A stretch of 64,000 bases of DNA from positions 1,376,001 through 1,440,000 of the forward strand of contig CAWFSF010000006.1 of the NCBI GenBank assembly GCA_963818475.1, in the 5' to 3' direction. Below, one piece after another: positions 8,818-33,579 of the stretch. Origin of the DNA: Nitrospirota bacterium. Its GTDB lineage: Bacteria > Nitrospirota > UBA9217. Made by a program: the position numbers and the translations under genes. Below the pieces are notes generated by a model. It was not told the DNA's origin. It was given only the letters and a program-made list of their open reading frames with translations, and searched no databases. How positions within the stretch are numbered: the stretch's first letter is position 1; each line of letters starts with the position of its first letter.

Positions 8818-10350
8818 TTATTTCTTCGTTCCTCGATCAGACTGATCTGCCCTTGTTGTTTCAGCCTTCTGGCCGGACAGGGCTATCCGTCTGGCAGCCT
8901 CCGTTACCCACCCGCCGCCCATCGTTTTGTACGTGCTCACCAGCGCCCCAAACAAATCGTTCTGGGTCCGAACATTGCTGACCTGAGAATCAAACAGGCT
9001 TCTTTCCGCATCCAGCACCTCGATGTAGCTTACGTATTTTGCATCGTAGCGGTTATGGGCCAACGAGGTGTACTCTTTGAGTGCGACGACGCGACGGTCC
9101 TGGACGGTGAGCAATTCACGCATTTTTTGTACGCTGACCAGGGAGTCGTTCACTTCTTTGAATGCCGTTTGTATCGTGCCCAGATACGCATTCAGCAATT
9201 GCTGCTGCTGTGCCTCAGCCGTGCGGACCTCGCCGGAGATGCGTCCGCCCGTAAAAAGAGGACCTGCGGCCCCGGCGCCCACCGTCCAGAAGGCCGAGTC
9301 TGCATCAAACAGGTGGGAGAGCGACGTGCTCGCGAAGCCGAACAATCCGGTCAGCGATATGGTCGGGAAATACTGTGTTCTGGCCACTCCGATTCTCGCG
9401 TTTGCCGCGATCAGATTCTGTTCGCTCTGGCGGATATCGGGACGGCGCAAAAGAACGTCAGACGGGATCCCCTGCGGAATTGCCGGAAAGACCAGTGCAT
9501 CCAGCGTTTTGCCGCGTTTGATCGCTCCCGGATTTCGTCCCAGCAGCACGGACAGGGCATTTTCCTCCAGGACGATTCTGCGTTCGATATCCGGAATGCT
9601 TTCCGCCACTTGCTCATATGCCGACCTGACCTGGGCGAGTTCCATGCCGGAAATCTGGCCGCCTGCGAACTTTCTCTGAAACAAGTCCAGGAATTCCTGG
9701 CGCGAGGCGAGCGTCTCTTTCGCGATCTCCAGGAGTTTGTCGAGGCTTAACAGGGTAATGTAACTGTCGGCAACGTCCGAGACCAGCGTTAGAATAACAG
9801 CCTGACGGGCTTCTTCCGCAGACAACAGATCCGCCCGCGCGGCCTCGCTCGCTCTTTTTATGCGCCCCCAAAGATCGAGTTCCCAGCCCGCGCTGCCGGC
9901 GACGCGATCGATGGTATTGCGACGATCGACGCCCGGAAGGGGGATCGGCAGGTTGAGGCTCCTGCTTTCGCGCACCGCCCCAGCCTGGTAACCGACCTGC
10001 GGAAAGTAGCCGGATCGAATGGACTCCAGGCGGCCGCCGAACTCCTCGACACGCGCTGCAGCGATGCGCACGTCCTTATTCTCATTGAGCGCTGTTTGGA
10101 TCAGCTCGTTCAGGACCGGGTCCTGGAATTGTTCCCACCAGGCCGTATTCGCAGTGTCAGCGGCGATTTGGGGCTCAAACCGCCAGGCCGGCGGGACGTC
10201 CGCCCCGGGCCGCACGTAATCCTTCGTCAGGGCGCAGCCCGCGAGAAGACCTGCCGCCAAAAAGACTGACAGCAGCAGGAAGCGCTGGTTTGATCGAATT
10301 TGAGATACCGTATGGCCATTCTCATGCTTTATAATTCCGCTGTTCATCAT
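8818..10350 (-). CDS. Efflux outer-membrane factor lipoprotein (NodT/OprM family)
   Basis: LLAGC lipobox; WWEQFQDPVLNELIQTAL; WELDLWGR; LLRRPDIRQSE; YFPTISLTG. Confidence 0.92.
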   Translation of the reverse strand: MMNSGIIKHENGHTVSQIRSNQRFLLLSVFLAAGLLAGCALTKDYVRPGADVPPAWRFEPQIAADTANTAWWEQFQDPVLNELIQTALNENKDVRIAAARVEEFGGRLESIRSGYFPQVGYQAGAVRESRSLNLPIPLPGVDRRNTIDRVAGSAGWELDLWGRIKRASEAARADLLSAEEARQAVILTLVSDVADSYITLLSLDKLLEIAKETLASRQEFLDLFQRKFAGGQISGMELAQVRSAYEQVAESIPDIERRIVLEENALSVLLGRNPGAIKRGKTLDALVFPAIPQGIPSDVLLRRPDIRQSEQNLIAANARIGVARTQYFPTISLTGLFGFASTSLSHLFDADSAFWTVGAGAAGPLFTGGRISGEVRTAEAQQQQLLNAYLGTIQTAFKEVNDSLVSVQKMRELLTVQDRRVVALKEYTSLAHNRYDAKYVSYIEVLDAERSLFDSQVSNVRTQNDLFGALVSTYKTMGGGWVTEAARRIALSGQKAETTRADQSDRGTKK

Positions 10351-10417
10351 GATTTCCCTGCCTTCTCGATATTGAAATTTATTTTTACCACTTCACCGGT
10401 AAATCACCCCACACCGC

Positions 10418-11335
10418 TCACGGTTTGTGAAATTGTTTCGCGAAATCCCAGGCAAGTTTACTCGCCGAGATATATCGGCCATCTGAAGCTTTATTATTTC
10501 GTCCATGGCCCCCGGCCCAGGCATGGCCTCCGCCTTTAATTACATACAGGGAGACAGGCGCGCCGTCCTTGCAGTCGTAAGAGGTTGCCTGGACGCCGTC
10601 GTTCAGCATTTTCTGCTCAGGCGACGCGCATTGACGCGGCCTGGTAATGAGCTCCATCGTGTCAGGCACTGATCGGTGCGCAACGTTTGCGAGGCTGTCA
10701 TTGCCCATCCCGCCGGCGAACGGCACGTTTTCGTCGCGGTCTCCGTGAATGTGCAGCACGGGAACATCCTTCGCGCGGTCGCAGTTATCGACGGCGAGGG
10801 TGCCGGACACCGGAATAATGGCGGCTATTTTTTCCGGAATTTCGCATGCAAGACGATAGGCCATCATCGCGCCGTTCGACATTCCGGTAACATAGACGCG
10901 CCGCGTGTCGATTGAGTATCTGGCATGGATATCGTCTATCATTTTATCGATGAACAAAACATCATCGACCTCCTGCTTCACTGCCTGTCCGCAGCAGCGG
11001 CCTGCATTCCAGGTCCTCCGGTTGTGCAGAGCTTTACTGCGGCCTCCGGTCCCCTCCGGATATGCCGTAATAAACCTGCCGGAGTCCGCGATATCGTCCA
11101 TGCCGGTCATTTTTCTCATGTACGCGGCGTTACCGAGGCCGCCATGCAGAACGATCATCAGGGGCTGTCCTTTTTCGACCGCAGTCGACGGCTGGTAAAC
11201 AAGATAGCTTCGTACGGCGCCGTTCACGGTCAGCTCATGGACCATAGCTTTCCCTTTCCCTTCGGCGGCGCCATGGGCAGCCGGAACAAGGAACAAGATC
11301 GAGAACAATGCGATGATCCGAAACAAGAGACACAT
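10418..11335 (-). CDS. Secreted esterase, PHB-depolymerase/LpqP-like family
   Basis: Signal peptide; LHGG; WNAGRCCG; DDVLFI; VYVTGMSNGAMM; HGDRD; GGGHAW. Start taken at ATG 11335 after a GAGGTG RBS. Confidence 0.85.
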   Translation of the reverse strand: MCLLFRIIALFSILFLVPAAHGAAEGKGKAMVHELTVNGAVRSYLVYQPSTAVEKGQPLMIVLHGGLGNAAYMRKMTGMDDIADSGRFITAYPEGTGGRSKALHNRRTWNAGRCCGQAVKQEVDDVLFIDKMIDDIHARYSIDTRRVYVTGMSNGAMMAYRLACEIPEKIAAIIPVSGTLAVDNCDRAKDVPVLHIHGDRDENVPFAGGMGNDSLANVAHRSVPDTMELITRPRQCASPEQKMLNDGVQATSYDCKDGAPVSLYVIKGGGHAWAGGHGRNNKASDGRYISASKLAWDFAKQFHKP

Positions 11336-11394
11336 ACCTGCATTCACCTCTCCGTAAACGACGCGCGTGTCCGGGAAAGCACGGACAGCGGCAA

Positions 11395-12312
11395 TCACGC
11401 GTTTCCGACATCCCGGCCCAGCTGCTCAAGCACGACCTCTTCAACTTCCTTGAGCGAGGCGAGAGAATTGTGCAGTTCCGAAGAGATTGCGTCCAGCCAT
11501 TTGATTTTTACTTCTGTTTTCTCCCGCTCGGCGATGATCTCTTCGAGGGGCGGAAGGACTGCCGGTTTTCCGTTCTGATCAAAAAGGAATTTTATTGATT
11601 CGCCGAGTTGCAGGACGCCGTTGATATGATTCATATGCCCCAGGATGAACCTTTTACGCTTGTTTGACTTGAAATTTCTGATCGCGGCTTCACGCAGGGC
11701 GGCTTCGACGGGGCTGAGCCCCTCCGGCGCTACGGTTACGTGCGGTTCGATCTGGTCCGGGCCGATCTTGTCCCGGTCTCCCATGTCCGAATAATAATCG
11801 GCAATGACCTTTCCCTGGTCACCGCGCACCAGCAGCCCCCATTCGATATCGTTTCTGTGTTCTTTCATGTCCGATTTGAAATCTTCTCCGGTCCGGTACT
11901 CCTGCAGGAAGCTGTCCCCTTTTCTGGTTCGGATCATGGCCGTCAATTGATACCCGCACTTCGGTGTTTCCCGTGGATGGGCCGCTTCCAGGATCAACCT
12001 GTTCAGCCTCTTGATGGCCTGCTGGTCCTGTTGGCTCAAGTCTTTGAACGAACCCTTTCGTTTCTCCGCAGTTTCATCGCGGAGTCCTTTCATTTCATCG
12101 GTCAATTCGAGAGATCTTTTTTCTGTCGCTACGCGGTCAAAGAATCCTGTCTGTTGCAGTATTTCATTGAGCCACTCGACGGTATTCTCGGGAGCGCTCG
12201 TTGCGCCGAGCTCATATTCTTCATTTTTGACCGTCCGGCAGAGCCAGGGAATGTCTTTGTTCTGATTTTTGAACTGATCGTCCGTAAAGTCTATGGATTT
12301 GCCGTTATTCAT
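11395..12312 (-). CDS. Hypothetical protein whose N-terminal ~115-aa domain also occurs inside the M50/HlyD fusion
   Basis: 305-aa ORF in the operon. N-terminus aligns with the protein segment encoded at ~15380-15720. Confidence 0.7.
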   Translation of the reverse strand: MNNGKSIDFTDDQFKNQNKDIPWLCRTVKNEEYELGATSAPENTVEWLNEILQQTGFFDRVATEKRSLELTDEMKGLRDETAEKRKGSFKDLSQQDQQAIKRLNRLILEAAHPRETPKCGYQLTAMIRTRKGDSFLQEYRTGEDFKSDMKEHRNDIEWGLLVRGDQGKVIADYYSDMGDRDKIGPDQIEPHVTVAPEGLSPVEAALREAAIRNFKSNKRKRFILGHMNHINGVLQLGESIKFLFDQNGKPAVLPPLEEIIAEREKTEVKIKWLDAISSELHNSLASLKEVEEVVLEQLGRDVGNA

Positions 12313-12387: not shown

Positions 12388-13288
12388 CTACGCATACCCG
12401 AACTCGCGCGCGAGCTCGATCACTTCCGGCCTCAGCTTTTTTCCGTCCTCCCGCCAGGGAACGTCCCTGTCCAGCTGAGGTAGTGCCGGCGTGTGCTGGT
12501 GAAATGCGGGGCCGCGCAAAAAATTAGGATCATTGCCGCATAATGCGGTAATCGGCCCGAAGCAGGCGAAGGGCGACCGTTCCGGATGCATCATTTCTTC
12601 AATTGCAGCCGCATCGTCGCGAATGCCGAGCCAGCGGCAGATGTTCGCCAAATGCCTTCGCGGCTGTTCCATGAGCTCCTCACCCAATATGCACATTTGC
12701 TGGTTTTTCGGCACTCCATGGAGAAAATTCAGAATGTTGATATTTATATCGTGCCAGGCGATTTGCGGATCGACAACGACACGATCGTTCATAAAATCGA
12801 ACGAACTCATTAAATAAGCAAAGACGCCGTAATTCAACGCCATGACCGACTTGCCCTGTGGAATGGGATGACGTATCAGATGAATGAAACGGGCCTCCGG
12901 AAATGCATCGTATATCCGCCTCATCCTTCCCAGGGACAGCGTATACGCGGGGCTTTTTTCAACGACAATGAGGGGGTCTACTCTGGCTGCCAGTTCCTGG
13001 AACACCTCTCCGGTCGTCTTTTCTTCCCGCGCGGCGGCCCAATGTTCGGCCATCGCAATGGTTGCGGATGTCTGCTCTCCCGCATAGATCTGGGCCACGG
13101 CCCTGAGCAATCCATGACGAACGCCCGGTATCTCCATCGAGCCGCTCGCCCCAGAACTCACCGATCGTTTCGACGTTGAACAAGTTCAACTCGGGCATGC
13201 CGAACGCCTGTGGGTGCTGGCCGATCATGGCATTGATCACCGATGTATAGGACCTCGGCGGAGCAAGTAAAAAGAGTGGTGCAGACAT
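12388..13288 (-). CDS. PAPS-dependent sulfotransferase (split by one frameshift near 13120-13155)
   Basis: N-part FLLAPPRSYTS...GQHP...PELNLF (5'-PSB-like loop). C-part VEKSP...FPEARFIHLIRHP (3'-PB region). Confidence 0.8.
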
Positions 13289-13415: not shown

Positions 13416-16244
13416 CTAGGGCAGCCAGGACCATACTTCCACCTCGAAGAACCGCACGAGCGCCTTCGTCAACACCTTGGCGATCGGCATGTTGTCGGCG
13501 CTGATTTTGGCGTACCCCGTCATCCCTGATTTTAAAAGATCGTCCTTATTGTCCAGCACCGTAAGGACCTTGACGACCTTCCCGGAGTCCTTCTCGGTCA
13601 CGCCTGCGTCAATTGCCATTACCATGCCGTTAAAGTCGGTATCTGAGTACGAGAGGGGCCGGACCCTTATATTTGAAGATTTTTTAATATAACCGATGTC
13701 AGGCTGAGGTACTTCGATCTCCGCGAACACCTGGGAGGTATTCTGCGCCACGGCGAATAATTCCCCCTTATTCAGGTAATGACCCACTTTTTGCCTCAGG
13801 TTGACGCCTTCCAGACGCCCGTCGAACGGCATGGTTATCATCGACTGGTTTATTTTCTCCTGGTAGTAGTCACGCTCTTCCCGGTAGCTTTGCAGCTTGG
13901 CCTCGGCCGCGGCTATTTCCTGCTTGGTCACTTCCGCTTTGACCAGTTCGAGTTTGGCGCGGTACTCCTTGATCTGCGCAGCGTCGACCTCGAATTCCTT
14001 GCGCTGGTCTTCGAACTCTTCCAGTGAAATAGTATTTTCTTTATACAGCGTTTCGAGGCGGTTTATCTTTTGGCCGCTGAAGTATCCCCGTTGTTCCTGC
14101 ACCTGCAGTGCCCGCCGAGCCAGTTGAAGCTCCTCAGGCTTAGGCCTTGCTCTCAGGTCTTCCACGATCGCCTGTTGCTCATTCACCTTTGCGACGTAAA
14201 TTTTCATCTGTCCCTGGTAATCAACGCTGGAGAGCTCCGCAACCACCGTGCCCTTTGTTATGAATTCTCCGCCGTCGAAGTGGACTTTGCTAATAATGGC
14301 CGAGTTTTCCGTGGTAAGTTCGGACTTCTGGTTCGGCAGGAGAACAAACGTTCCGCCTGGTTCATAATGATAGGGCACAAACAGTCCGGCCGCTATGGTA
14401 CCGACGATGAGCCATTGCACCGGGGTCATCGGCGAACTTTTGCTTTCGGTCTCGGCGGACAGCGTCTCAACATTCGGAAGCGCACGGTTCTTCCACCGGT
14501 CAAACTGCGCCGTCCGCTCATAAGCGGCCGCCACCTGCTTGATCTTTGCGGTCAGGCGAAGCAGCAGCGTCATAAGGACGAGCACGACCAGGAATATGCC
14601 GGCTCCGCCGAGGTGCAATTTCAGCAAATTACCGAAAAACAGGATGAATACGGCGAGTGTCGCCATAATGAACAGGGAAGACGCCAGCGCATAGACAGCA
14701 AGGACGTTGTTATCCGCTTTTCGGTAAACATCGCCGCGCAATTTGTTCACGAGCGCCAGGTACGCCTTCTGCCGAAGCTGCGGTTCATTCAGGACGGCCC
14801 CTAACAACTGAGAACCACTGCTTTTCATCAGGGGGTTTGCAGCCAATAGGAGGGATGCCGCGCCGAGAATGCCCACCATCAACGCAAGCTGCGGCAGGAA
14901 ACCGTTCATGGTCCTTGTGCCGAACCAGATCAGAAGACAGACCGATGCAATACCGACGCGGGCCAGAAGAGGAGCGGCATACAGCCATATACATTCGCGC
15001 CGTGACAGCTGCTTCGTGTGGCCTATTCGCACCATAAAACGGGGGAAAAACCCGAAAAGCAGCATGACGCCGAAGGAATTCACCGTTGCACGGTAGGAAT
15101 ATGCCGTTAATGCCGTCACCAGCACCGCAAACAGATTAACCGTGAACATACTGGTAACGACATGCGCTGCAGAGGTCCACCCCATACGGCTGAAATCCTG
15201 CCCGATAAGGTTCGCGTGGTGAATACCGGTGAAAAGGGCAGCAAGTGCCAGGGCGGGAATCATGTATGCCGCATATTTAAGCTGCGACAGATACGGGTGG
15301 ATGAGCTTTAATGCCCGTGCCGGATTGAATATTTCCCACGAAATAAGGTCAGACTGATCGGCATCGTCGAGATTCCGCCCTTCGGAGCTTCTTTATAGAG
15401 AAGTTCGAGGAGCAATCTGTTCATCCTTCTTATGGCATTCTGTTCTTCGATCTTCAGGTCTTTGAGCACTGCCTTGCGGTTCTTTTCTGTTTGTTCTTTT
15501 AATTTCTTTATTTCGTCCGTTAACACGAGCTTTGCCCGCTTGGCCGCCGCTTGATCCAGCAGATCGGGCGTTTGGAGCACTCCATTGAGCCAGTCAATCG
15601 AATTTTCGGGTGCTTGTATCGAGAGCTGATAGTCCTTCATTTTTTATCGCCCGGCAGAGCTTCTGAATATCCTTATTCTGTTCCTTGAATTCATCAGCAT
15701 TAAAATCTGAAGTATTGAAAACGACCGTAAGGGTCGAAACTCCGGATGTCTGCATTTCTTTCTCGCCGGCGGCGTGGACCGCTTCCGGTACAGGCGACGC
15801 GTGCCCCCCTTGCCGTTACCATTGCCGTTTCCGTTGCCGTTCCCCCCATTGCCGTGGGTTTTGGCGGTTGCCGCCTGGGATGACACGCGCCTGCTGGACA
15901 AGCTGAATCCCCTTCTTTTTATAGAACGCGGCCACCAGGGGGTGCGCATCCGCCGAAGAACCGAACAGCTTTATCTCCTCAACCAGCGAGAACAGTTCTT
16001 CGACTTCTTCGTTCGTTATGGACCGTCCGAAGCGGTCCTCGAAAATCGAGGCAAGTTTCGGGAAGTCGTTGCATACCGGCAACACTTCCAGAACAAAAAA
16101 TTGCCAGGTCTCGAACTGATAGGTCAGGCCTTTCCAGTTGTCCCTCACCCGGTATCTCTGCTGGTCGCCCTCCGTTTCACGAAATGCCACCAGACCCTGC
16201 CGCAGCAATGCGGGAAGCGCCACTCTCTGAGGCTCCTGTATCAT
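13416..16244 (-). CDS. Fusion of PqqD-like N-domain, degenerate M50-peptidase-like membrane domain and HlyD-type membrane-fusion domain (~940 aa, four apparent frameshifts)
   Basis: ORF pieces 15816..16244, 15644..15949, 15308..15640 and 13416..15263 join via 1-bp shifts near 15900, 15806, 15635 and 15378. Multi-TM block is followed by a lipoyl/coiled-coil region and LKSGMTGYAKI. Confidence 0.75.
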
Positions 16245-16323: not shown

Positions 16324-17775
16324 TCATTGATTCGGTGCAAAAAATACTTCGCAACCTCCCCGCGGATTGTGCACATATCCGTCCCCGTCGAGCGGCAGCA
16401 CTTTCGGCCCGAACGGATTGGCCGTTCCGAGAAAGAGGCCGTGCGGCGAGGAAGCCATGGTTCGCAGTCCGATGTTATACGGGTTGTCCATGCCGTTTTG
16501 GGTCACGGGCACCCAGTTCTCCCCGTCAAAGCTCCGATACAGATCGAAGCCGGATTGCCGCTCAAGGATGAACTGCTCGCCGACCTTGTTCACGATATTG
16601 GTGAACGCCCTCGGCCATGTTTCGCGTCGTGCGTATCCGAGGGCGAAGCTCCAGCCGAAAGAAGAAAGGTACAGCCATCCGTTGTGCTCGCACATGCGCC
16701 AGAAATAACCGTTAAAAAAATTGTCGAACCCGGGCAGATACCCGGAAAGGGGGTTTTTATGGCCGTCGGGAGTATCGCGTTCCTCTCCAACGATCAGGTC
16801 CCAGTGCTTGTCAGGGAAAATACGGATCAGCTCGGCCGCTGCCGGCCCGATTTTGTTCTGCCGGTCGACACCGCCGCCCTGTATCCCGCTTCCGACATAG
16901 AGGGCGCCCTTGAACGGGTACATGCTCAGGACGCATTGATTGAAGGCGCCCCGATACGCCCCGCGTTCGATGATTTTTTCCCAGTGATAAGGCTGTTCCC
17001 CTTCCGCTGTTGTGCGCCATACCTGATAGCCGTCAAGATTGAACGTGCCGGCATACAGGTGATCGCCCAGAGCAGCCATTTCAAAAATACCTTTATTGCC
17101 GAGGTCCCCGAACCCGAAATCGTTAATCGGTTCCCACCGGCCAAGAGCCGGGTCCCTGCTTTCGTATATTACGGAATGCCCTGATACATTCGGGTTTCCG
17201 CCGCGGGAGCCGGCCGGCGTGGTATACATCCGTCCTTTAAACTGGGTGAGCGAGCGTATCGTTGTCACCGGCAGCCCTATCAAGCCGGGCTCGCAGGTTT
17301 GTTCGAAGTTCCTGCCGTCCTCGGACCGGAGCAGGACCGGCCCGGGTCCCTTGGCTGGGGACCAGGTGCTGACATAGAGCGCCGGTGCACGGTCCTTCTC
17401 GGCCTGATAGACCAGCATCGCGCGATACGACAGATCCCGCGGAATGGGCTTGCCGTGGCTGCCGGTAATGGTCGGGGACTTATGCACCCTTTCCCAGGTG
17501 TCACCTTCCGGGCTGTAACGCCATATCTCAGCGCGCAGATCCAGATCGAAAGGATTCTCCGGACATTCCACCGGCCATGGATCAAGACCTATCGGCATGC
17601 GCGACTTCATCAAGGGGAAATTTCCTCGCATGGTGCCTACGAAGAGGCAGCCGTTGAACCATGCCATTGAATGGGCATAATTATTGAGCCCGTCGCCGAA
17701 GCCCTGGCACGCGATCAGCTTGAAATCCTTCTGTGAACATCCGGGGGGGATGAACAGTTTGTTCGTTACATTCAT
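16324..17775 (-). CDS. Cytoplasmic repeat/beta-propeller-like protein
   Basis: No signal peptide. Repeated GFGD/GFDN..N.Y..SM..F.G.LYVGT units and C-terminal NPYNIGLRTMASS. Confidence 0.75.
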   Translation of the reverse strand: MNVTNKLFIPPGCSQKDFKLIACQGFGDGLNNYAHSMAWFNGCLFVGTMRGNFPLMKSRMPIGLDPWPVECPENPFDLDLRAEIWRYSPEGDTWERVHKSPTITGSHGKPIPRDLSYRAMLVYQAEKDRAPALYVSTWSPAKGPGPVLLRSEDGRNFEQTCEPGLIGLPVTTIRSLTQFKGRMYTTPAGSRGGNPNVSGHSVIYESRDPALGRWEPINDFGFGDLGNKGIFEMAALGDHLYAGTFNLDGYQVWRTTAEGEQPYHWEKIIERGAYRGAFNQCVLSMYPFKGALYVGSGIQGGGVDRQNKIGPAAAELIRIFPDKHWDLIVGEERDTPDGHKNPLSGYLPGFDNFFNGYFWRMCEHNGWLYLSSFGWSFALGYARRETWPRAFTNIVNKVGEQFILERQSGFDLYRSFDGENWVPVTQNGMDNPYNIGLRTMASSPHGLFLGTANPFGPKVLPLDGDGYVHNPRGGCEVFFAPNQ

Positions 17776-17815: not shown

Positions 17816-17894
17816 TCCGCAGATTTCGCAGATTTCGCGGATGAAAAAAAAGAGCTTATTTATTCTTTTTTATACTATCAGCGTAATCTGCGGA
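17816..17894. repeat. Intergenic palindrome built from 9-mer units (CGCAGATTT/AATCTGCG)
   Basis: TCCGCAGATTTCGCAGATTTCGCGGAT ... ATCAGCGTAATCTGCGGA. Confidence 0.7.
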
Positions 17895-17922: not shown

Positions 17923-18987
17923 TTACTTCTCAATTCCTCTCGGAACGACTCCAGACTGCTGAGTCCCAAAAAAAGCTTTCGCGTGATTCAGATCATCAAA
18001 CGGTCCTTTTCCCGGCGTTTCTCTCGTATCCAGAAACCACTTGCCTTCCCGGGTATAGAACCGGTCGCTTCGAAAGTACCGCTTGCCGGAGTCCCCTCTT
18101 CTCCGGGGGACCTCATCGAGGAGCGCCCCGTTCCAGAACTGGCGGCATATTTCCATGAACTCGTCGGGGCGCGTGACCGGAAAGAAATGGCCTGCTCCGC
18201 GGATCCTGCGAAAATCTGCCTGAGGCCACACCTCCAAAATCTGTTCTCCGGTTGTCATTGCCGGAGAGTGCTCTCCGTACACGGCCAATATCGGGAAATT
18301 GAGCTTCCGCAACTTATCCAGCGATAAACCGTCATCGCCCATCAATTCTTTCCCTGCCCGGGTCGTCTTGATTAATTGCAGCCAGGCGCTAGCCGTGCGC
18401 GAACTGTTTTTTCCCATGAGCGGGCGGACCATATCTTCGAGCTCCCGGGTAATCGCCGCGTTCCCGAGTTTCAACCGGGCCACTTCGGTCAACAGCCGGT
18501 AGCCGAAACAGGGGTCGGTGACATCTATCTTCAGTTTGTTCTGATCCAGAATTCGCTGGATCTTTTCTCCGAATTCCCATCCCGCATGTCCTGCCCGGCG
18601 GACCGCGTGGATCTGCGTGTCGAGAACCATCAGACTTGCGAACCGGTCAGGGTTCCGGCAGGCGAGGTTCAACGCCACTGCGCCGCCGAAGCTGTGGGCT
18701 ACAAAATGAGCTCGCTCGATGTCGAGTCGGTCGAGAAGCTGCTCAAGATCAAGGGCCATATTCGCAACTGTATAGCCGCTTTCGGTGGTGCCTGACCGCC
18801 CGTGCCCGCGCAGATCGAATAACGTAACGCGGTAGCGCTTCGAAAACGCGGGCGCATGGGTGAAGTACCAGAAAGCAAGATTCGTGGCCAGTCCGTGCAC
18901 CATGACCAGATCTTCACAATCTTCCCCTGAATCGCACGGGATCCGGACGTAATTGATGCGGACACCGTTGACGTCAGCGAACGGCAT
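17923..18987 (-). CDS. Alpha/beta hydrolase (possible thioesterase) with C-terminal DUF6316-like domain
   Basis: HGLA, DLRGHG, AHSFGG and GAGHFFP motifs. Tail RRGD...RSDRFY...GKWFLDTRE...GPF. Confidence 0.8.
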   Translation of the reverse strand: MPFADVNGVRINYVRIPCDSGEDCEDLVMVHGLATNLAFWYFTHAPAFSKRYRVTLFDLRGHGRSGTTESGYTVANMALDLEQLLDRLDIERAHFVAHSFGGAVALNLACRNPDRFASLMVLDTQIHAVRRAGHAGWEFGEKIQRILDQNKLKIDVTDPCFGYRLLTEVARLKLGNAAITRELEDMVRPLMGKNSSRTASAWLQLIKTTRAGKELMGDDGLSLDKLRKLNFPILAVYGEHSPAMTTGEQILEVWPQADFRRIRGAGHFFPVTRPDEFMEICRQFWNGALLDEVPRRRGDSGKRYFRSDRFYTREGKWFLDTRETPGKGPFDDLNHAKAFFGTQQSGVVPRGIEK

Positions 18988-20636: not shown

Positions 20637-20657
20637 GATCAAGTCCTTTCCTGTTCG

Positions 20658-20690
20658 TCCCTCCCCTTGCCGGGGGAAGGCTAGGTGGGT
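20658..20690. repeat. REP-like GC hairpin (CCCTCCCC...GGGGAAGG family)
   Basis: CCCTCCCCTTGCCGGGGGAAGGCTAGGTGGG. A related copy lies in the opposite orientation at ~21048-21086. Confidence 0.5.
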
Positions 20691-20718
20691 TCGCATCCCG
20701 CATTTGCGTTTACGGGTA

Positions 20719-25880: not shown

Positions 25881-26070
25881 ACCGCGGAGTCGCGGATACG
25901 CAAAAAAAACGCCAAAGCCAAACCATTGTCCGCAGATTACGCAGATTACGCCGATTAGATCAGATCCGATTAGTTTTTTAAATCTGTGTAATCTGCGGAA
26001 TCTGCGGATTACACTTTTCTAACGTTTTTCCTCGCTGATCTTTTTCTCCGCGTCTCGGCGTCTCCGCGGT
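25881..26070. repeat. Nested palindromic 9-mer repeat elements
   Basis: Outer ACCGCGGAG...CTCCGCGTCTCGGCGTCTCCGCGGT. Inner (25929-26008) TCCGCAGATTACGCAGATTACGCCGATT...AATCTGTGTAATCTGCGGAATCTGCGGA. Confidence 0.75.
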
Positions 26071-26091: not shown

Positions 26092-29000
26092 TTAAGCCGA
26101 AGGCTGCGCCGCCGCGTTGACGTTATCACCCGCCCGGTTCAGCTCCACAACAGGAACAGGCACTGTATCTGCGGAAGTATTTCCGCCGGCCGGCGTCAGG
26201 AGACCGGTGTCCACGGCCCGTGATTTCCTTCGTATCGCGCCGATCCTGGCCTCGCGTTCTTCCCACGGTCCCTCACCGCAGATGATCTCGATCTCATCTC
26301 CGCCGTGACGGGCAATTTCCTGCCTGAATACCCCGCGCCCTGCTTCAGGGGTAACGAGAGCGACTCTTTTTCCCGCAAACTTGACTTCCATTTCCGGTGT
26401 CACCATCCCTGCACCGAATTTCGTCGCACCCCACGGTCCCCAGCAGAACGCTTTGACGTTGACCTTGTTCGCCCAGATGCGCTTCAACTGGCAGCAGAGT
26501 CTGTTCATGAGTTCATTAGCCGTAGCGTAATCGCTCTGTCCGCTGTTGCCGTAGCGCCCTGCCACGGAACTCATCACGCCAAAGAAGCGGAGTGATTCCG
26601 GGCGCAAATATTTCTGGAGCAGCAAGAAACCGAGCACTTTCGTTTCTACCACCCGGGACCAGCTGTCGCTCTTCTTGTCTGCAAGCAGCTTATCCTCTAT
26701 GATGCCCGCACCGTGAATGACGCCTGAGATCCGGGAATATTTATTGTATATGCTGTCAAAAAGCTGCCGCATCGCATCATCATTCGTCACATCAACTGAG
26801 TGGTATTCGACCGTTGCACCGTGCTTTCTGAAATCGTCAATGTTATTCCGCATTTCTCTTGCGGCAAGGATGGATTTCACCTTGCGCCGAATCTCCGCCG
26901 GGCTCATCTTCGCGCCCCCTTTGCGGACCTCCGAAACAAAATGCTCGCGTAAAGCCTCGGGAGTTATGAATGACTTCAAATCCCCGGACTCGTCCTGCTG
27001 GAGCGGGCTTCGGCCGGTCAGTATGAGCGTGTTGCCCGGCAGGGCCAGTTCCCTGAGCAGTTCAGCGGTCACACCCTTCATACCGCCGGTCGCGAGGACG
27101 ACCATGTCGCTCGTAAAGTCCGGCCGCTCCTTTTTCTCGGGAAGCGACTCGGCGACGGTCTCGAAGATCGTTCGCGCGCCACGCGGGTAGCCGACCTCCT
27201 GACGCCCGCCTTCAAGCTCGAGCTCGTCCATGAGGTGCGTTGCTATCTCGCCGGCGCTTTGCTCCGGATCCACGTCTATCGCCTTTACCCTGAGCTGAGG
27301 GCGCTCCTCGCTGAGCGACTTGAGCACCCCGATGTCCCCGCCCTGGATGGAGAGACCCGGTGAATTGTTTCCCTGCCTGTTGAACATGCCGCCCAAAGAA
27401 CTTGCCGAGAGGACATGCGCATCGCTCCTGAGCATGCCCGATAGATCGTGCAGGAGGAGGTAAAGCGATTTCTCGTTGAGCTGCAGCTCGCTTCGCCAGG
27501 TCTCGACCGGGGAATCGGCCGGATGCCATGCCGATCCTATCTGGGCGAGATGGACTATGCCCGCGACCGGTTCGCTCGCGGCTTTGCGTGAAACGCACCA
27601 TTGAGCCAGCAGTTGTTCGTCTTGAAGGACTTCGCGTTCGATTATCGTCACGGTACAACCCCGCGCGCGCAGGACCTCGGACAGGTTCTCGGCGACCCGC
27701 AGCGCGTCACGCGTGATGATAAAATTGCCCGCGCTCAGGCGTTTCGAGGCAAGGGCATCGATCGGTTCCTGCTTCGCTTTCATGACATGCCGGAATGAGC
27801 GGCTTGATATGCAAGTCGGTGATCCCATTCCGGCTTCATCAAAAGGGACGGTGGTCCCCGCTTCGGTGCTGCTCACTTTTTCCATGATATCCAGCATGCC
27901 GCTCAAAGTGGGCTGCGTATTCAGCCCGCCGAGGTCTTTGCCCAGTGACTGCCCGTAGACCGGCGGCAATGCCTTCATTAATGCGCCGACGATCTCGACC
28001 CGTTTTATCGAATCGATGCCGAGGTCGGCCTCCAGGTTCTGGTCCATACCGATCATGTCGGGCGGATAACCCGTCTTTTCTTCGATGATACCGAGCAGCA
28101 TGGCCGTCAGTTTTTTCCGGTCCATGCGATCAGCGGGTTTGTCCGCAGGCCCGGCGGAAACCTCTGGCGGAGCAGGTGTTTTCTGAACGCCGGATGGCGC
28201 GGCGATCGCGGGCTGTGGCATGGTTTCCTCAGTCGGGCCGGCCGGCATGTGCGGCGTAACCGGCATATCGGGCCTCAAAAATGGCTGAATGCGCTCAGGT
28301 CCCGGATTCCCGTACGGCGCCTGCGCCGGCATTTGGCTGAGCATTCTCACCCCCGGCCGCCGCCTTCCGTTCGACGGCCCGCTATTCGACGTCCCGCCGA
28401 GATGCATCGACATGATCCGCTCCTGTGTTTCAAGGAACTGCCTCATCATATCGAAATAGGTCGCCATGACTGACTGTTCATCATCAATAGGCATCTCTCT
28501 TTGGCCTCCTTTGTGAAATTTCCCGCTTTCGTATTTTCTTGACGCCAGACGGCTGCTGAAGATCGCATCCGTTTCCGGTCCGGAAGCCGGACGCGCCTCG
28601 CTCGACGTCGGCGTTGTTTTTTGCTTTTGCAGTTCATCCATCCTGATGCCGACTTGCTTCACCTGCTCGGTCGCGCGCCGTGCGCGGCTTCCGTTCAGCA
28701 GCCAGCCTTTTTTCAGATCCTCTTCACTGCGCGCAATCGCCTGGACAGGCGCGTTCAAACGGCCGCGGCCCTCAAAGAGCTTGCCTGCCTCGAGTGGTAT
28801 GCCGGCGCAGAGCAGTTGTCCGAACGCGTGCAAGAACGCGGTAATGCCCCCGCCGTTGGCGTCGATCGCAATCATCTTATGGGGTCTGTCGTCAAGTATG
28901 CCGCTCACGAGCTTGGTCAGAACCGACTTCGGACCGAGTTCCAGAAAGACCCGCGCGCCGTCGCGGTACATGGCCTCGATTTCGGCCACAAATTCCACCG

Positions 29001-32000
29001 GCCGGACCAGGTGATCGGTCATGACCCGCTTGATCTTCTCGACATCGCCGGCGTGGGGCTCTCCCGTGGTATTGGAATAAACCGGAATCGCGGCGTTCCG
29101 CCATACAGTCTTCCCGATCACCTCGGCAAGTGCGGACTGAGCGGGCGCGACGAAACGCGAGTGAAACCCCGCGGCAACTGATATTTTTGCGACGCTGACC
29201 TTGTCCTGGGACATCCGCGCCGAAGCTTGTTCGATCGCCGCAGTTGACCCGGAGATAACACATTGTCTCGGAGCGTTATGGTTTGCAACCACGAGGTCCT
29301 CGATGCCCGAGATTGCCCTTTCAACATATTCTCTCGGCGCCCTGATCGCGGCCATTGTCCCGAGTTCAGCGCCGGCTTTTTTTACCGAATCGACGATGAA
29401 CCTGCCGCGGGCCTCCGAAAGCGACAGGAGCGAGTCGAAATCCAGGACCCCGCCCGCAAACAGCGCGGTGAATTCGCCATAACTGTGGCCGCCCGACATG
29501 TGTGCGCGCAGACCGAACCACTCCATTAATTTCCAGAGACCTGCCCCCATCGCGCCCAATGCGGGCTGCGCAACATCCGTGCCGGTCAATGCCCTGGTTG
29601 CGTCGGCCTTTGCCTGCTCGCTGTAGCAGCCCCGGGGGAAGATGAAATGACTTAACCGTGAACCGACGCCGAAGCGCTGTTCGAAACGCCCGGAGAGCAG
29701 CCGGTCGGCTTCGGAAAGCATGTCCGCATAAACGGAAAAATTCAGGGCCAGTTCGCGCGACATACCGGTAAATTGAGACCCCTGCCCCGGGAAAAGCACC
29801 GCCGTTTTAGCGCCTGGTTCAGCGCCGCTGCCATGGTAGACCCCCGGCGGAAGCGCTTCGAGCTTTCCGGTCAAAAAGCTCACAGCCGACCGGATCTTAT
29901 TCATAAGGTCTCCGACATCGGAAGCGACGATCGCGAGCGTTTCCGCGCCAGGCTGGTAGGCCCTGGCCAGATCGCCGGCGATGCCGTACAAGTCCGATCT
30001 TTTTTCTTTTTCGATTTCCTCCTGCGTATGGGTGATGCCGGCAATCAGTTCTTCCCGGCCCCCGCCGTGCCAGAGCAAAAGTTCGGACGGCCAGGTCTGG
30101 CCGGCGCCTGTATGCCGGAACGGATGCTCCTCACCGTATTCTTCCAGAACAACGTGAAAGTTTGTGCCTCCGAACCCGAACGCGCTCACCCCTGCGCGGC
30201 GCGGCCGGTCTTCTGCGCCCAACCAGGCCATCGGCTGATCGACGAGGTACAGCGGGCTGTCCGCCTGATTGAGCGCCGGGTTCGGCTGATTGACCCCGGC
30301 ATGCGGCGGCAAAACGCGATGGTGAAGAGCGAGCGTTGCTTTGATCATCCCGGCGATTCCGGCCGCGGCTTTTGAGTGGCCGATAAGCGATTTCACAGAG
30401 CCGATCGCGGTCAGGCGCGGTGTGCTCCCTGCTTCCCGGAGAAGCATCGATGTGCTTTCGAGCTCGGCGGTGTCGCCTACAACAGTGCCGGTGCCATGGG
30501 CTTCGAACAGTCCTACCGTATCCGGACCGAAACCCGCCTGTTCATACGCGTTGCGCATGGCGCGTACCTGGCCTTCCGGATGCGGTGCGGTCAACCCTTT
30601 GGCCTTCCCGTCACTGCTGCCGCCTACCCCTTTGATCACCGCATAAATGCGATCTCCATCGCGTTCGGCGTCCTCGAGCCTTTTCAATGCGACCATTCCG
30701 ATCCCTTCAGAGATCACAATCCCGTCCGCAGCGGCATCAAAAGCGGAACAGCGGCCCCGGGGAGACAATGCCTGGGTCTTGCTGAAGCACGTATACCCGA
30801 AAGGTCCCTGCACGGTGTCCACGCCGCCGGCAATGACCAGGCTGCTCCTGCCCGAAACCAGCTCGCCGACTCCCTGATATATCGCGGCCAAGGAAGAGGC
30901 ACAAGCCGCATCCGTAGTAAAATTGACGCCTCCCAGATTGAGACGATTGGCGATGCGGCCCGGTACGACATTCAACAGTATTCCCGGGAACGTATCCTCG
31001 GTCCATTCCGGCAGCCGCTGAGCAACGACCTCGGGCAGTTCGCCCAGAAATCTCGGCAGTTCAGAGCGCAGCCCGTACTGAACGCCAACATCCCCGGTCC
31101 CGCCGCTTGCACCGAGAATGACCGAAGCCGTCTCCCGATCGAACGCTTTTTCTTCGTAGCCCGCATCAGCCAGGGTGCGCCGGGCGACCTCGAGGGCCAT
31201 CAACTGCATGGGGTCTATGGATTCAATCGACTTCGGCGGAAGTCCATAGCGGGTAGGATCGAAGAACAGGTCGTCCATGAAGCCTCCCCACTTGGAATAG
31301 ATCTTGTCCTTTGCGTGCCGATCTTCATCAAAGTACAGCCGCCAGTCCCAACGGTCGCACGGGACCTCGGTAATTGCATTCTTCTTATTCAGGATATTTT
31401 CCCAGTATGTCCGGAGATCCCCTGCTTTTGGAAACAGGCCCGCCATGCCGATAATGGCGACGTCGGACGGCTTCGTCTCCCGTTTTTTCGGACTCGTCTC
31501 ATAGGGGGCCAGGTTGGCCAGTTTCTCGCAAGCTTTGATCGTTACCTCTTCATGCAGATCACGGATGGTCCGGACCCGGTCATGCAGCGCGGCGAGCTGA
31601 CCCGTCATATAGAGTCCTTCTGCATGCTGCGCGGCGCAGTCAACAGGAACAAGCGGGGTCTTCTCTTCCGTCCGATCCCCATCGCCGTTTCTGCCGAGAC
31701 CTTTGGCGGCTATACGCGACTTCCCCAGAATGAGTTTCTCGAGAACCGCGGACATTTTCTTGCCGGTGATATTCTGTTCCGATAGTTCTCTTTTCTTTCC
31801 TTCAAATTTCGCCGCAAGCGGCGTGATGCAGCACCGGAGGGCATGGCCGGGAGAAAACCCGAGAACGGCTGTTTCCCGGCAGTCGAGCACTTTCTGCTGA
31901 TATCCCGCCACGATCGCTCCCGATTCGGCAATCTCGGGAGTAAGAAGATAAGCCGTGCCCATCAACACGCCGATACGCATTCCCGCCTGCGCGAGAGGAG

Positions 32001-33579
32001 CGGCGATAACGGCTGCCATCGAGGCTGAAAGTGCATCATGGATCCCCCCGGCATAAAGGATGTGGTACTCATCCAGCCGGTCGGAGCCCTTCAAAGACTC
32101 GATCAGTTTTTCCGTCATCATGTCCCAGAGAACGAAGCTGGACCGTGGACCGATATGCCCGCCGCACTCATTTCCCTCGAAAATAAATCGTTTCGCTCCG
32201 GCCTGAAGGAACATATCAAGGATGTCCGGTGAGGGCACGTGGACATACGTGGCTATTCCCTTTGACTCCAAGAGAGAAGCCTGATTGGGCAGACCTCCGG
32301 CAATGATCGCGAAGGGTGGTGAAAAATAACTGAGTGCTTCCACTTGTTCCCGGAGAAGTTCTTCTTTATTAAAACCGAGAATTCCAACGCCCCACGAACG
32401 ATCACCCAGCGTTTCCCTTACTTCCCGCAGGAGCGTTTTGATCTCCTCTCCCTTGAGCATCGCTAACGCCACAAAGGGCAGGCCGCCTCCCTCTGCCACC
32501 CGAGACGCAAATGCCGGGCTGTCAGTAATGCGGGCCATGGGTCCCTGGGCAACGGGGTAGAGCGTTCCGTGTGACCTCGCCAGCGGGGAATCCTTGTGAA
32601 GGGTTACCGCTGTCTTTGCTATTTTAGTATGTTCATGAACAGCTCTTCTGATCGCCCGGAGAATCGAGCCGACGGTGCCATATCGTTCAGCGAACGGCGC
32701 TGCAAAGGCTACGTCCTGCCCCAGAAGCCAGAAGGGGTTCCTGGTATCAGTCCAGGACAGTTGTTTCGTGATGATTTCCCGCCACGCAGCCTGCATTTTG
32801 TGATTTTCGTCATGATTGCTCTCTGAAGATATTTCTCTTTTACGAAGATCTTCTAAACAGGGAGAACCGGGACGCATATAGAGCCTGCACGGGGCCTTCG
32901 TGTTTTCTCCAATCAATTGAGGCTCGCTGCCATTCATTCTGCCTATATACTTCTTTACGTCTTCTGGCAACGGAGACTCACGAGTTAAAAGCAGCTGTGA
33001 ATCTAAAACAACACCAGCCGCCCCTGCGGCGTAACAGGCCGCAGCGGTGTGCAATCCGATGCCTCCTTGGGCAAATACAGGCACGTTTGCCTTTGAGAGT
33101 ATCTGTTGGAGTAGAATGAATGCGGTTTTCTCCCCAACCATTCCCGCTGCCTCATTTCCTTTGGCCAGCAATCCATCAACTCCCGACACTTGCCCGAACA
33201 TCGCTTGAGCGAGAGAGGTAACTTCCAGAATTACGTTCTTATTCCGGCGATGGATTTCATTTATGATTTTTTTTATATTTTCTGGGTCACCCCCGGTGAG
33301 AATCACGACCTCAATGCATTCCGGGAGTTCCGACATGAGGGCAGTGATGAAAGCATCATCACCACAACTCACTTTGATACCATAGCGTCCACGGGCATTA
33401 CGTCCAATTTTTTCAATGCTCTGCCTGGCCACCTGGACATCGCCGGTATACTCTAAATCGAGAATGCCCAATTCACCAGCCCTTGCAGCAGCAACAGCAA
33501 TGGCTGGTTCAGGCAACCCTCCTGGAGTGAGTGCGAAACACTGGAACCGAGGGCTTTGTCTTTGTACTGCAGAATCCAC
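26092..33579 (-). CDS. Iterative type I PKS/FAS: tandem FabK/nitronate-monooxygenase-type ER, KS, AT, ACP, KR
   Basis: ER-like KGNEAAG, AQGGIG, QGPMA, EGNECGGH, AGGIHD. KS: DAACASS, EAHGTGT, KSLIGH. AT: FPGQGSQ, GHSYGE, GFHS. ACP: LGIDSIKRVEI. KR: ATGGMKGVT, HGAGIIED, GQSDYATAN. Confidence 0.93.
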   Translation of the reverse strand: MDSAVQRQSPRFQCFALTPGGLPEPAIAVAAARAGELGILDLEYTGDVQVARQSIEKIGRNARGRYGIKVSCGDDAFITALMSELPECIEVVILTGGDPENIKKIINEIHRRNKNVILEVTSLAQAMFGQVSGVDGLLAKGNEAAGMVGEKTAFILLQQILSKANVPVFAQGGIGLHTAAACYAAGAAGVVLDSQLLLTRESPLPEDVKKYIGRMNGSEPQLIGENTKAPCRLYMRPGSPCLEDLRKREISSESNHDENHKMQAAWREIITKQLSWTDTRNPFWLLGQDVAFAAPFAERYGTVGSILRAIRRAVHEHTKIAKTAVTLHKDSPLARSHGTLYPVAQGPMARITDSPAFASRVAEGGGLPFVALAMLKGEEIKTLLREVRETLGDRSWGVGILGFNKEELLREQVEALSYFSPPFAIIAGGLPNQASLLESKGIATYVHVPSPDILDMFLQAGAKRFIFEGNECGGHIGPRSSFVLWDMMTEKLIESLKGSDRLDEYHILYAGGIHDALSASMAAVIAAPLAQAGMRIGVLMGTAYLLTPEIAESGAIVAGYQQKVLDCRETAVLGFSPGHALRCCITPLAAKFEGKKRELSEQNITGKKMSAVLEKLILGKSRIAAKGLGRNGDGDRTEEKTPLVPVDCAAQHAEGLYMTGQLAALHDRVRTIRDLHEEVTIKACEKLANLAPYETSPKKRETKPSDVAIIGMAGLFPKAGDLRTYWENILNKKNAITEVPCDRWDWRLYFDEDRHAKDKIYSKWGGFMDDLFFDPTRYGLPPKSIESIDPMQLMALEVARRTLADAGYEEKAFDRETASVILGASGGTGDVGVQYGLRSELPRFLGELPEVVAQRLPEWTEDTFPGILLNVVPGRIANRLNLGGVNFTTDAACASSLAAIYQGVGELVSGRSSLVIAGGVDTVQGPFGYTCFSKTQALSPRGRCSAFDAAADGIVISEGIGMVALKRLEDAERDGDRIYAVIKGVGGSSDGKAKGLTAPHPEGQVRAMRNAYEQAGFGPDTVGLFEAHGTGTVVGDTAELESTSMLLREAGSTPRLTAIGSVKSLIGHSKAAAGIAGMIKATLALHHRVLPPHAGVNQPNPALNQADSPLYLVDQPMAWLGAEDRPRRAGVSAFGFGGTNFHVVLEEYGEEHPFRHTGAGQTWPSELLLWHGGGREELIAGITHTQEEIEKEKRSDLYGIAGDLARAYQPGAETLAIVASDVGDLMNKIRSAVSFLTGKLEALPPGVYHGSGAEPGAKTAVLFPGQGSQFTGMSRELALNFSVYADMLSEADRLLSGRFEQRFGVGSRLSHFIFPRGCYSEQAKADATRALTGTDVAQPALGAMGAGLWKLMEWFGLRAHMSGGHSYGEFTALFAGGVLDFDSLLSLSEARGRFIVDSVKKAGAELGTMAAIRAPREYVERAISGIEDLVVANHNAPRQCVISGSTAAIEQASARMSQDKVSVAKISVAAGFHSRFVAPAQSALAEVIGKTVWRNAAIPVYSNTTGEPHAGDVEKIKRVMTDHLVRPVEFVAEIEAMYRDGARVFLELGPKSVLTKLVSGILDDRPHKMIAIDANGGGITAFLHAFGQLLCAGIPLEAGKLFEGRGRLNAPVQAIARSEEDLKKGWLLNGSRARRATEQVKQVGIRMDELQKQKTTPTSSEARPASGPETDAIFSSRLASRKYESGKFHKGGQREMPIDDEQSVMATYFDMMRQFLETQERIMSMHLGGTSNSGPSNGRRRPGVRMLSQMPAQAPYGNPGPERIQPFLRPDMPVTPHMPAGPTEETMPQPAIAAPSGVQKTPAPPEVSAGPADKPADRMDRKKLTAMLLGIIEEKTGYPPDMIGMDQNLEADLGIDSIKRVEIVGALMKALPPVYGQSLGKDLGGLNTQPTLSGMLDIMEKVSSTEAGTTVPFDEAGMGSPTCISSRSFRHVMKAKQEPIDALASKRLSAGNFIITRDALRVAENLSEVLRARGCTVTIIEREVLQDEQLLAQWCVSRKAASEPVAGIVHLAQIGSAWHPADSPVETWRSELQLNEKSLYLLLHDLSGMLRSDAHVLSASSLGGMFNRQGNNSPGLSIQGGDIGVLKSLSEERPQLRVKAIDVDPEQSAGEIATHLMDELELEGGRQEVGYPRGARTIFETVAESLPEKKERPDFTSDMVVLATGGMKGVTAELLRELALPGNTLILTGRSPLQQDESGDLKSFITPEALREHFVSEVRKGGAKMSPAEIRRKVKSILAAREMRNNIDDFRKHGATVEYHSVDVTNDDAMRQLFDSIYNKYSRISGVIHGAGIIEDKLLADKKSDSWSRVVETKVLGFLLLQKYLRPESLRFFGVMSSVAGRYGNSGQSDYATANELMNRLCCQLKRIWANKVNVKAFCWGPWGATKFGAGMVTPEMEVKFAGKRVALVTPEAGRGVFRQEIARHGGDEIEIICGEGPWEEREARIGAIRRKSRAVDTGLLTPAGGNTSADTVPVPVVELNRAGDNVNAAAQPSA

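Follow-up and report, generated by a model that had tools for sequence, protein, structure and literature searches.

A 64,000-nucleotide stretch of contig CAWFSF010000006.1 from a Nitrospirota bacterium (the window; coordinates below are positions within it) carries, at 8818–33579 and with all of its genes on the minus strand, a gene cluster built around two megasynthases, PKS1 and PKS2, together with a discrete acyl carrier protein (ACP), a sulfotransferase, hydrolases, a beta-propeller protein and export components. Direct observation covers which genes and motifs are present, their synteny, the families they resemble and the domain fusions, and we consider it very probable that this is a functional-type, horizontally spread and uncharacterised biosynthetic gene cluster. 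An earlier reading made from the letters of the DNA (the sequence-only reading) had described eleven co-oriented genes. The co-orientation holds, but the count does not, because the cluster has at least 12 genes when the 483-aa beta-propeller (16324–17775) and a PqqD-like open reading frame (ORF; 15816–16244) are included. Full-text literature searches, with most subscription journals lying outside their range, found no paper on this gene set and no characterised product, in agreement with that reading.

Gene order shared by five loci

Scanning genome contigs with PKS2 as the query identified five loci (L001–L005), which form the basis of the synteny comparison. They lie in metagenome-assembled genomes titled Nitrospira (L001), Candidatus Thiodiazotropha (L002), Desulfobulbaceae (L003), Spongiibacteraceae (L004) and Rickettsiaceae (L005), and every window protein was compared with each of them by tblastn. 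As far as each contig reaches, all five loci share the order PKS1, PKS2, ACP, PF01663 enzyme, alpha/beta hydrolase, 483-aa protein, 142-aa protein, HlyD protein, sulfotransferase, C-terminal part of a 305-aa protein, and esterase. Because the same order recurs in 5/5 loci of five bacterial lineages, the grouping of these genes is not a matter of chance. The co-occurrence of tailoring and export genes with the synthase genes, on which the sequence-only reading had staked its case, is borne out by this synteny.

Four proteins were found at all five loci: PKS1 (46–67% identity), PKS2 (53–65%), the alpha/beta hydrolase (46–71%) and the 483-aa protein (64–81%). The PF01663 enzyme (56–75%; missing from L002) and the HlyD protein (42–54%) were each found at four. 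The sulfotransferase (66–74%) and the esterase (50–66%) are present at the three loci that reach far enough, and the C-terminal part of the 305-aa protein matched at three of the five (46–48%). Gene misses in L003 and L005 coincide with contig ends. Since the upstream neighbours vary between loci, PKS1 is the 5′ border of the cluster. An indirect sign of further co-location is that 18 'longest contig' values are identical between the lists of the best 120 homologues of PKS2 and of the 483-aa propeller.

Domain content of the synthase and accessory proteins

PKS1 (26092–33579, 2495 aa) contains, as judged from Pfam, NCBIfam and motifs, a FabK-like NMO region, a PfaD-like NMO region, a ketosynthase (KS), an acyltransferase (AT), an ACP and a ketoreductase (KR). 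PKS2 (21117–25820, 1567 aa) contains a KS with Cys-His-His, an AT, a PKS-type dehydratase (DH) and a phosphopantetheinyl transferase (PPTase). These ORFs and this domain order, as found by Pfam and NCBIfam, are those of the sequence-only reading. The Pfam matches in PKS1 are NMO in two stretches, the N- and C-terminal ketoacyl-synt domains, Acyl_transf_1, PP-binding and KR, and those in PKS2 are KS, AT, PS-DH and ACPS. TIGR02813 PfaA is the top NCBIfam model for both proteins, with a score for PKS1 (994.9 bits) slightly below its cut-off of 1010.1. FabK TIGR03151 covers PKS1 residues 25–237, which correspond to the first NMO region; the two NMO regions resemble each other weakly (E 0.002), and the second contains a motif that we take to be PfaD-like.

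The catalytic motifs claimed earlier can all be read in the sequence. Both KS domains have DAACASS and two histidines (HGTGT/GHS in KS1 and HGSG/SHC in KS2), and because both keep all of these residues, neither is a chain-length factor; for KS2 that role is ruled out by the presence of the active cysteine. The AT active-site motifs are GHSYG and GHSTG, the PKS1 ACP domain has LGIDS, the PPTase has WCAKEAAAK, and the KR has YATAN with its tyrosine present. A second KR motif, HGAGIIEDK, looks B-type, which, by the motif rule that we assume here, would presumably give a (3R)-hydroxyl. In the DH of PKS2, His1051 within FLRHHTLSG is unchanged in 15/15 aligned homologues, and YHGPIFQ and LLDAMGQ, in the second half of the domain, align with the PksJ dehydratase 8QK4. 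Homologues of PKS2 with an identical architecture number in the thousands. The discrete ACP (20719–20997, 92 aa) gives a weak match to NCBIfam NF003757 (E 3.9e-5) and no match in Pfam; its serine in F-A/N/S-S-x-D is unchanged in 6/6 orthologues, in accord with the free ACP of the sequence-only reading.

Judged by their domain content, PKS1 and PKS2 would constitute a complete iterative type I fatty-acid synthase (FAS) set with two KS, two AT, ACP, KR, DH, FabK/PfaD-type enoyl reductase (ER) and PPTase. By the logic of Pfa/Ars secondary-lipid synthesis, the pair would make a long, mostly saturated acyl chain out of malonyl units. Shulse & Allen 2011 (PMC3098273), in the relevant passages, define secondary lipid synthases by a pfaA-like gene with at least one KS, at least one ACP and at least one KR, and Pfam places all three in PKS1. 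The same passages give the PPTase motifs P1a, x(G/D)xP, and P1b', hShxH, as marks of types M–T, which include the Azotobacter ars type; the PKS2 PPTase has KGAP and VSLSH at P1a and P1b'. The cluster is probably one of the Pfa-like secondary lipid synthases, and the earlier placement among Pfa/Ars-like synthases with a tailoring set of their own is supported, with TIGR02813 as the best model and KGAP and VSLSH in the PPTase. As a separate observation, the Rickettsiaceae PKS2 orthologue (L005:9974–14206) has 1410 aa and aligns only up to query residue 1443, so that its PPTase domain seems to be absent or truncated.

The sulfotransferase (12388–13288) is recognised by Pfam as Sulfotransfer_3 on ORF 12388–13161. 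Its two best solved relatives in the PDB, as found with this truncated ORF, are the OLS/CurM sulfotransferases 4GOX (E 1.8e-11) and 4GBM (E 1e-10). A PAPS-loop-like APPRSYTS and a PEL, seen in the N-terminal piece and in orthologues, align with SPPRSGST and PEL of the CurM type, whose PAPS-loop and glutamate residues we assume to serve in binding of 3′-phosphoadenosine 5′-phosphosulfate (PAPS) and in catalysis. The CurM and OLS enzymes make transient sulfates, in which the sulfate acts as a leaving group. The single ACP orthologue in the cluster at the Thiodiazotropha locus forms one protein with a second sulfotransferase, which is of the CurM type (4GBM, E 5e-62).

Twelve longer proteins were found that include a sulfotransferase of the window type, and their other domains were checked. 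Four carry two copies of a 140-aa domain equivalent to the C-terminus of the 305-aa protein, three are fused to metallo-beta-lactamase-type alkyl sulfatase domains, and one (P0396) is fused to a PF00975 thioesterase (TE). The remaining four are fused, one each, to an NAD-dependent reductase-type domain, a PQQ-type propeller, DUF6624 and an unknown domain; the C-terminal halves of two fusions, P0401 and P0395, showed no similarity to any cluster protein. Given the TE fusion and the three alkyl sulfatase fusions, the sulfotransferase is repeatedly paired with an enzyme able to cleave its ester. Together with the likeness to CurM and OLS and the fusion to ACP, these fusions argue that the window-type family probably acts on alkyl or acyl hydroxyls and is tied to ACPs. 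The Spongiibacteraceae locus has an extra PF00884 sulfatase-family gene (L004:18981–19802) between adaptor and sulfotransferase, whose similarity to the STM4013/SEN3800 family is weak (75.8 bits vs a cut-off of 250).

The neighbouring 305-aa protein (11395–12312) consists of a conserved helical domain of ~140 aa at the C-terminus and an N-terminal ~160 aa specific to this genome. Only residues 121/177–305 match the other loci, where the orthologues have 141–214 aa. Four proteins join the sulfotransferase to a pair of these 140-aa domains, which makes the domain a likely sulfotransferase partner.

As the sequence-only reading had listed, the tailoring genes include, beside the sulfotransferase, a PF01663 enzyme and hydrolases (Pfam). 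The first of these is a cytoplasmic alkaline-phosphatase-superfamily protein (19050–20696; Pfam E 4e-41) that keeps its metal and Thr-nucleophile motifs, with LTPPAW, ASDHGF and GTHH unchanged in 5/5 orthologues. A phmmer search against the PDB returned nothing at E <= 0.01, and a profile search with the protein gave only marginal matches there, to GalNAc-6-sulfatase (0.013), NPP (0.04) and PhnA (0.2). 'Phosphodiesterase' is therefore best taken as a family label, not a function, for what appears to be a hydrolase-type metalloenzyme, and the phospho-decoration once proposed for the product finds no basis in a protein with such marginal similarities. The alpha/beta hydrolase (17923–18987; Pfam), with its serine in HSFGG and a C-terminal DUF6316, is a candidate chain-releasing enzyme whose nearest solved structures are generic esterases and lactonases. 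A PHB-depolymerase-family esterase with GMSNGA (10418–11398; Pfam; NCBIfam NF050058, 179.7 bits vs a cut-off of 150) has a hydrophobic N-terminal segment and is predicted to be secreted. A possible extension of the cluster is a gene at 7459–8796 (minus strand) for a secreted protein that has the hydrolase motif GHSNGG and scores above cut-off for the BPSS1187 family (NCBIfam NF047580, 236 bits).

Two adjacent ORFs specify the parts of an unusual adaptor. The first (15816–16244, 142 aa) is a PqqD-like (RRE-like) domain, and the second (13416–15263, 615 aa) combines an M50-like membrane domain of five predicted transmembrane segments without HExxH with an HlyD-type periplasmic adaptor (Pfam HlyD_D23/HlyD_3). 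In 4/4 orthologues (L001–L004) the two form a single ORF of 797–838 aa with the PqqD-like domain at its N-terminus. This domain received an Atlas score of 0.94, with 18/30 matches in PqqD-bearing sets, and no Pfam match at E up to 0.1. The membrane domain of the orthologues matches the NF041824 daptide intramembrane metalloprotease (E 4.9e-9) and YydH/LiaK (9e-5); HExxH was found in 0/4 of them, and by this criterion the domain is predicted to be protease-dead. A complex prediction pairing the PqqD-like domain with the 140-aa domain scored 0.00, which gives no verdict and was not used as evidence. The NodT-family outer-membrane lipoprotein (8818–10350; TIGR01845, 371.7 bits, above cut-off) has an LAGC lipobox. 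None was found within 2.7 kb at the Thiodiazotropha locus, and the flanking sequence compared for L001 and L004 stops short of its position; it is a candidate member of the conserved core.

The 483-aa beta-propeller is the best-conserved gene of the cluster, at 64–81% identity across phyla (5/5 loci), and has no Pfam or NCBIfam match. Its fold is taken from an AlphaFold2 model that reached pLDDT 93.7 with an alignment and 31.7 in a single-sequence run. No function can be read from the fold, because Foldseek searches of the model against the PDB gave only generic propellers (TM <= 0.47). Homologues number 1723 at E <= 1e-3; among the best 120, which are 68–87% identical, all source names are 'hypothetical' bar one odd name. 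Relatives at 40–53% identity are often longer, and 16 of these were tested for domains: five contain a SAM methyltransferase (one of them also of the mycolic-acid cyclopropane synthase family), one a PlsC-type acyltransferase and one an NAD epimerase/reductase, the others having extracellular-type domains or no Pfam domain. The fusions to methyltransferase, PlsC and NAD-reductase domains suggest that the propeller may work beside lipid-tailoring enzymes. A tblastn search of a plasmid collection with the propeller gave no match. Three paralogous secreted proteins downstream of the cluster (1–1332, 1426–3495 and 4756–6549, minus strand) are 51–87% identical to one another, and one of them bears chitobiase/Fn3-associated C-terminal domains. 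They resemble the cytoplasmic propeller weakly (E 9e-5, 29% over 120 aa) and may belong to its superfamily as extracellular representatives.

The intergenic DNA contains a 22-nt tandem-half-site motif, CCGCAGATTNCGCAGATTNCGC, found only in gaps between cluster genes (3 matches vs 0 expected in 100 shuffles). Two inverted copies (25930–25951 and 25986–26007) form a hairpin between PKS1 and PKS2, and a third copy lies at 17817–17838. The repeat might serve as a binding site for a regulator or as an element of an RNA. Upstream of PKS1, 33580–35029 is a 1.4-kb segment of lower GC with no convincing ORF and a strong bidirectional terminator-like hairpin at 34559–34592. No sigma-54 promoter consensus was found upstream of PKS1 (one match elsewhere vs 2.0 expected), and an Rfam scan of the whole window returned no family.

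Proposed chemistry, rival readings and cluster integrity

From these observations we infer a chain length, a sulfotransferase substrate, a fate for the sulfate, and roles for the propeller, the alkaline-phosphatase-family enzyme and the esterases. The last extension would stop at the beta-hydroxy stage, with the chain carried by the discrete ACP, and the CurM/OLS-type sulfotransferase would sulfonate that beta-hydroxyl using PAPS. The alpha/beta hydrolase would then release the chain with sulfate as the leaving group, so that a terminal alkene forms, or else the product of some related elimination or substitution, and the alkaline-phosphatase-superfamily enzyme would handle the sulfate or phosphate ester by-product or intermediate. 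The PqqD-like/M50-like/HlyD fusion and the outer-membrane channel would pass the product to the envelope, where the secreted esterases may process it. We favour this whole mechanism, a sulfonated ACP-bound beta-hydroxyacyl chain from which sulfate departs on hydrolytic release, but tentatively, with a confidence that falls somewhat short of even.

Several points weigh against it. The position of CurM sulfotransferase His62, a residue that presumably has a role in that enzyme, is Asn in the window protein, and the alpha/beta hydrolase is PF00561-type, not PF00975, with no specific likeness to the CurM thioesterase. At the Thiodiazotropha locus the window-type sulfotransferase is kept beside the CurM-type one, and the two may differ in job. 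No inner-membrane ABC, RND or MFS pump gene was found in 4756–33579 by Pfam or NCBIfam. With adaptor and NodT protein present and no pump gene in that interval, the tripartite envelope exporter is incomplete; the dedicated exporter of the sequence-only reading consists of the HlyD adaptor and the NodT outer-membrane protein, and the adaptor proves to be fused to modules resembling those of ribosomally synthesised and post-translationally modified peptide (RiPP) systems. The literature search found no experiment on any cluster member. Finally, a hydrocarbon accounts no better, and perhaps less well, than a stable amphiphilic sulfate ester for the reductase fusion of the sulfotransferase (1/12, SwfB-like), the export genes and the secreted esterases.

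That ester is the product envisaged by the sequence-only reading: a long-chain hydroxy-lipid that keeps its sulfate, and so is a surfactant of the alkyl or acyl sulfate kind, and that is brought to the cell surface by export. It is a serious proposal that we nonetheless find doubtful. Export components and two secreted esterase-type proteins adjoin the synthase, alkyl-sulfatase fusions show alkyl sulfates to be within the chemistry of this sulfotransferase family, and the Spongiibacteraceae cluster contains the extra PF00884 sulfatase-family gene. The fusion to an NAD-dependent reductase-type domain is a reductase-plus-sulfotransferase arrangement, for which, in the swf case, an alkyl sulfate is proposed in the relevant part of PMC3908369. 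These points are set against the transient sulfates produced by the nearest characterised sulfotransferases, CurM and OLS, and against the repeated pairing of the window-type enzyme with ester-cleaving partners. We also know of no such lipid from the named carriers, a point on which no search was made. The sulfated product claimed earlier is, given the CurM/OLS kinship of the sulfotransferase, one of two live readings. In a further alternative, the acyl chain is moved onto a peptide or small protein recognised by the PqqD-like domain and the conjugate is exported as a lipidated RiPP-like product. The Atlas score of the PqqD-like domain and the homology of the fused membrane domain to daptide and YydH/LiaK RiPP-maturation proteases speak for this, and alpha/beta hydrolases can serve as acyltransferases. 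However, a precursor-peptide gene is conserved in none of the five loci, the M50-like domain of the orthologues lacks HExxH, the PqqD assignment is without Pfam support, and the conserved 140-aa protein, which other genomes encode as a fusion with the sulfotransferase, has the look of a partner to an enzyme and not of a substrate. We regard such a product as very improbable.

The favoured chemistry also has to contend with two broken genes. One surplus base at ~13120/13121 shifts the frame of the sulfotransferase, leaving its first 56 codons (ATG at 13288) in another frame, and the adaptor gene is split into 15816–16244 and 13416–15263 by a stretch of ~450 nt with stops. Besides in-frame stops, the interrupted linker (15264–15815) has an insert that the orthologues in L001–L004 lack and that repeats, in diverged form, the 5′ portion of the 305-aa gene. 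Its 110-aa ORF (15308–15640) is 43% identical to the 305-aa protein over 90 aa (blastp, E 1e-22), with ~65–70% identity in DNA. A module of ~90 aa (APEN..WLN..LQ..., helical by eye) accordingly occurs twice, at 15308–15640 in the linker and at 11950–12312 in the N-terminal extension of the 305-aa protein. The frameshifted sulfotransferase and the stops and diverged insert in the adaptor gene could mean that both are pseudogenes of a cluster decaying in this genome, with no final product. This we judge improbable, because three further genes of the window, rtcB (35030–36364 plus ~34800–35030), rph/RNase PH (40250–41100) and one for an ABC-transporter ATPase (48150–49000), are likewise spread over two frames. 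These interruptions suggest that indel errors are frequent in this assembly, and such errors are the simplest explanation at least for the sulfotransferase break. None of the PKS domains or remaining accessory genes is damaged, and the two parts of the adaptor might yet function as individual proteins.

A wider proposal would join these elements: a single horizontally moved cassette, under strong constraint in nitrifying Nitrospira, anammox Scalindua, the sulfur symbiont Thiodiazotropha, sulfate reducers and Rickettsiaceae, that makes an undescribed class of lipid through ACP-bound sulfonation, requires the 483-aa propeller as a new enzyme fold family, and exports its product through a RiPP-type recognition/membrane module re-used for lipid. 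Taken as a whole we rate this as unlikely, though worth stating. An active cluster would mean that bacteria of ecological importance, most of them uncultured, have in common an undescribed envelope or surface lipid, or an undescribed hydrocarbon. Such a lipid could be a biomarker and could alter surface properties or host interaction, and the sulfate-leaving-group chemistry of CurM and OLS would reach beyond modular PKSs to fatty-acid synthases of the iterative kind. In addition, the cluster provides a context for three families that have no assigned function: the 483-aa propeller, the 140-aa sulfotransferase partner domain and the PqqD/M50-like/HlyD fusion.

Comparison with known systems

Among Pfa-like synthases, the cluster resembles PfaA systems in its best NCBIfam model, its NMO/PfaD-type enoyl reductase and its iterative logic. 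It differs from polyunsaturated fatty acid (PUFA) synthases in having one ACP in place of a tandem array and in the fusion of ER and PPTase into its megasynthases. Identity with a PUFA synthase (pfaABCDE) is ruled out by the single ACP, the lack of a chain-length factor and the lack of a FabA-type DH, the DH here being PS-DH.

The domain order of PKS1 and PKS2 may, as the sequence-only reading proposed, recall that of Azotobacter ArsA and ArsD, and the second KS-AT, on PKS2, may be a difference from ArsD. The relevant portions of the published accounts (PMC3098273, PMC4824345) present the Azotobacter vinelandii ArsA/ArsD system (Type P), like the cluster, as a single-ACP FAS/PKS with its own PPTase and a specialised chain, C22–C26 in Ars. 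The cluster differs in having no type III PKS, and its neighbours are instead the sulfotransferase, alkaline-phosphatase-family hydrolase, beta-propeller and export genes. No type III PKS domain was found by Pfam or NCBIfam in any ORF of 4756–33579 or in the neighbours tested, which excludes the ars phenolic-lipid system as the identity of the cluster. The earlier statement that neither a type III PKS nor a chain-length factor is present is correct for these ORFs, both KS domains keeping their cysteine.

The export genes invite comparison with the heterocyst glycolipid system, which likewise has a membrane fusion protein and a TolC-type channel beside a Pfa-like synthase. In that system the HglE-type synthase makes a long-chain lipid, and DevBCA-TolC export places it outside the cell. 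The adaptor of the cluster matches DevB TIGR02971 weakly (E 1e-10, below the NCBIfam cut-off), and the cluster is without the ABC components DevC and DevA and without a glycosyltransferase. The adaptor also resembles RiPP modules (PqqD/RRE, daptide, YydH/LiaK) in its putative PqqD-like domain and in a membrane domain homologous to their proteases. Unlike those modules, the adaptor lacks HExxH, has no precursor peptide (no small ORF is conserved in the five loci), and carries the module fused to HlyD inside a lipid-synthase cluster.

The swf cluster of sponge symbionts is, like the present one, an orphan, widespread type I FAS/PKS with a sulfotransferase and a product that is unknown in the pertinent sections of its description (PMC3908369). 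By those sections, SwfA is a single KS-AT-DH-ER-KR-ACP protein, SwfB is a sulfotransferase fused to a thioester reductase, and a radical SAM protein is the partner; propeller, alkaline-phosphatase-family and export genes do not figure in swf as described there. Identity with swf was rejected because of this different architecture (PMC3908369).

A parallel for the tailoring step is the ACP-sulfotransferase-TE off-loading of CurM (curacin) and of OLS, the cyanobacterial olefin synthase. Here too there are differences: the sulfotransferase, ACP and hydrolase of the cluster are separate proteins, and the hydrolase is of another alpha/beta family. The window-type sulfotransferase is only distantly related to that of CurM, and the cluster synthase is predicted to be iterative, not a modular PKS or FAAL-primed. 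An ACP-sulfotransferase-TE arrangement in one polypeptide with a PF00975 thioesterase was not found in the window; partial forms occur as the ACP-sulfotransferase fusion at the Thiodiazotropha locus and the TE-sulfotransferase fusion P0396. What the cluster has in common with CurM/OLS off-loading is a Sulfotransfer_3 protein nearest to 4GOX and 4GBM, a partnership with ACP as seen in the Thiodiazotropha fusion, a neighbouring hydrolase, and a TE-sulfotransferase fusion among its relatives.

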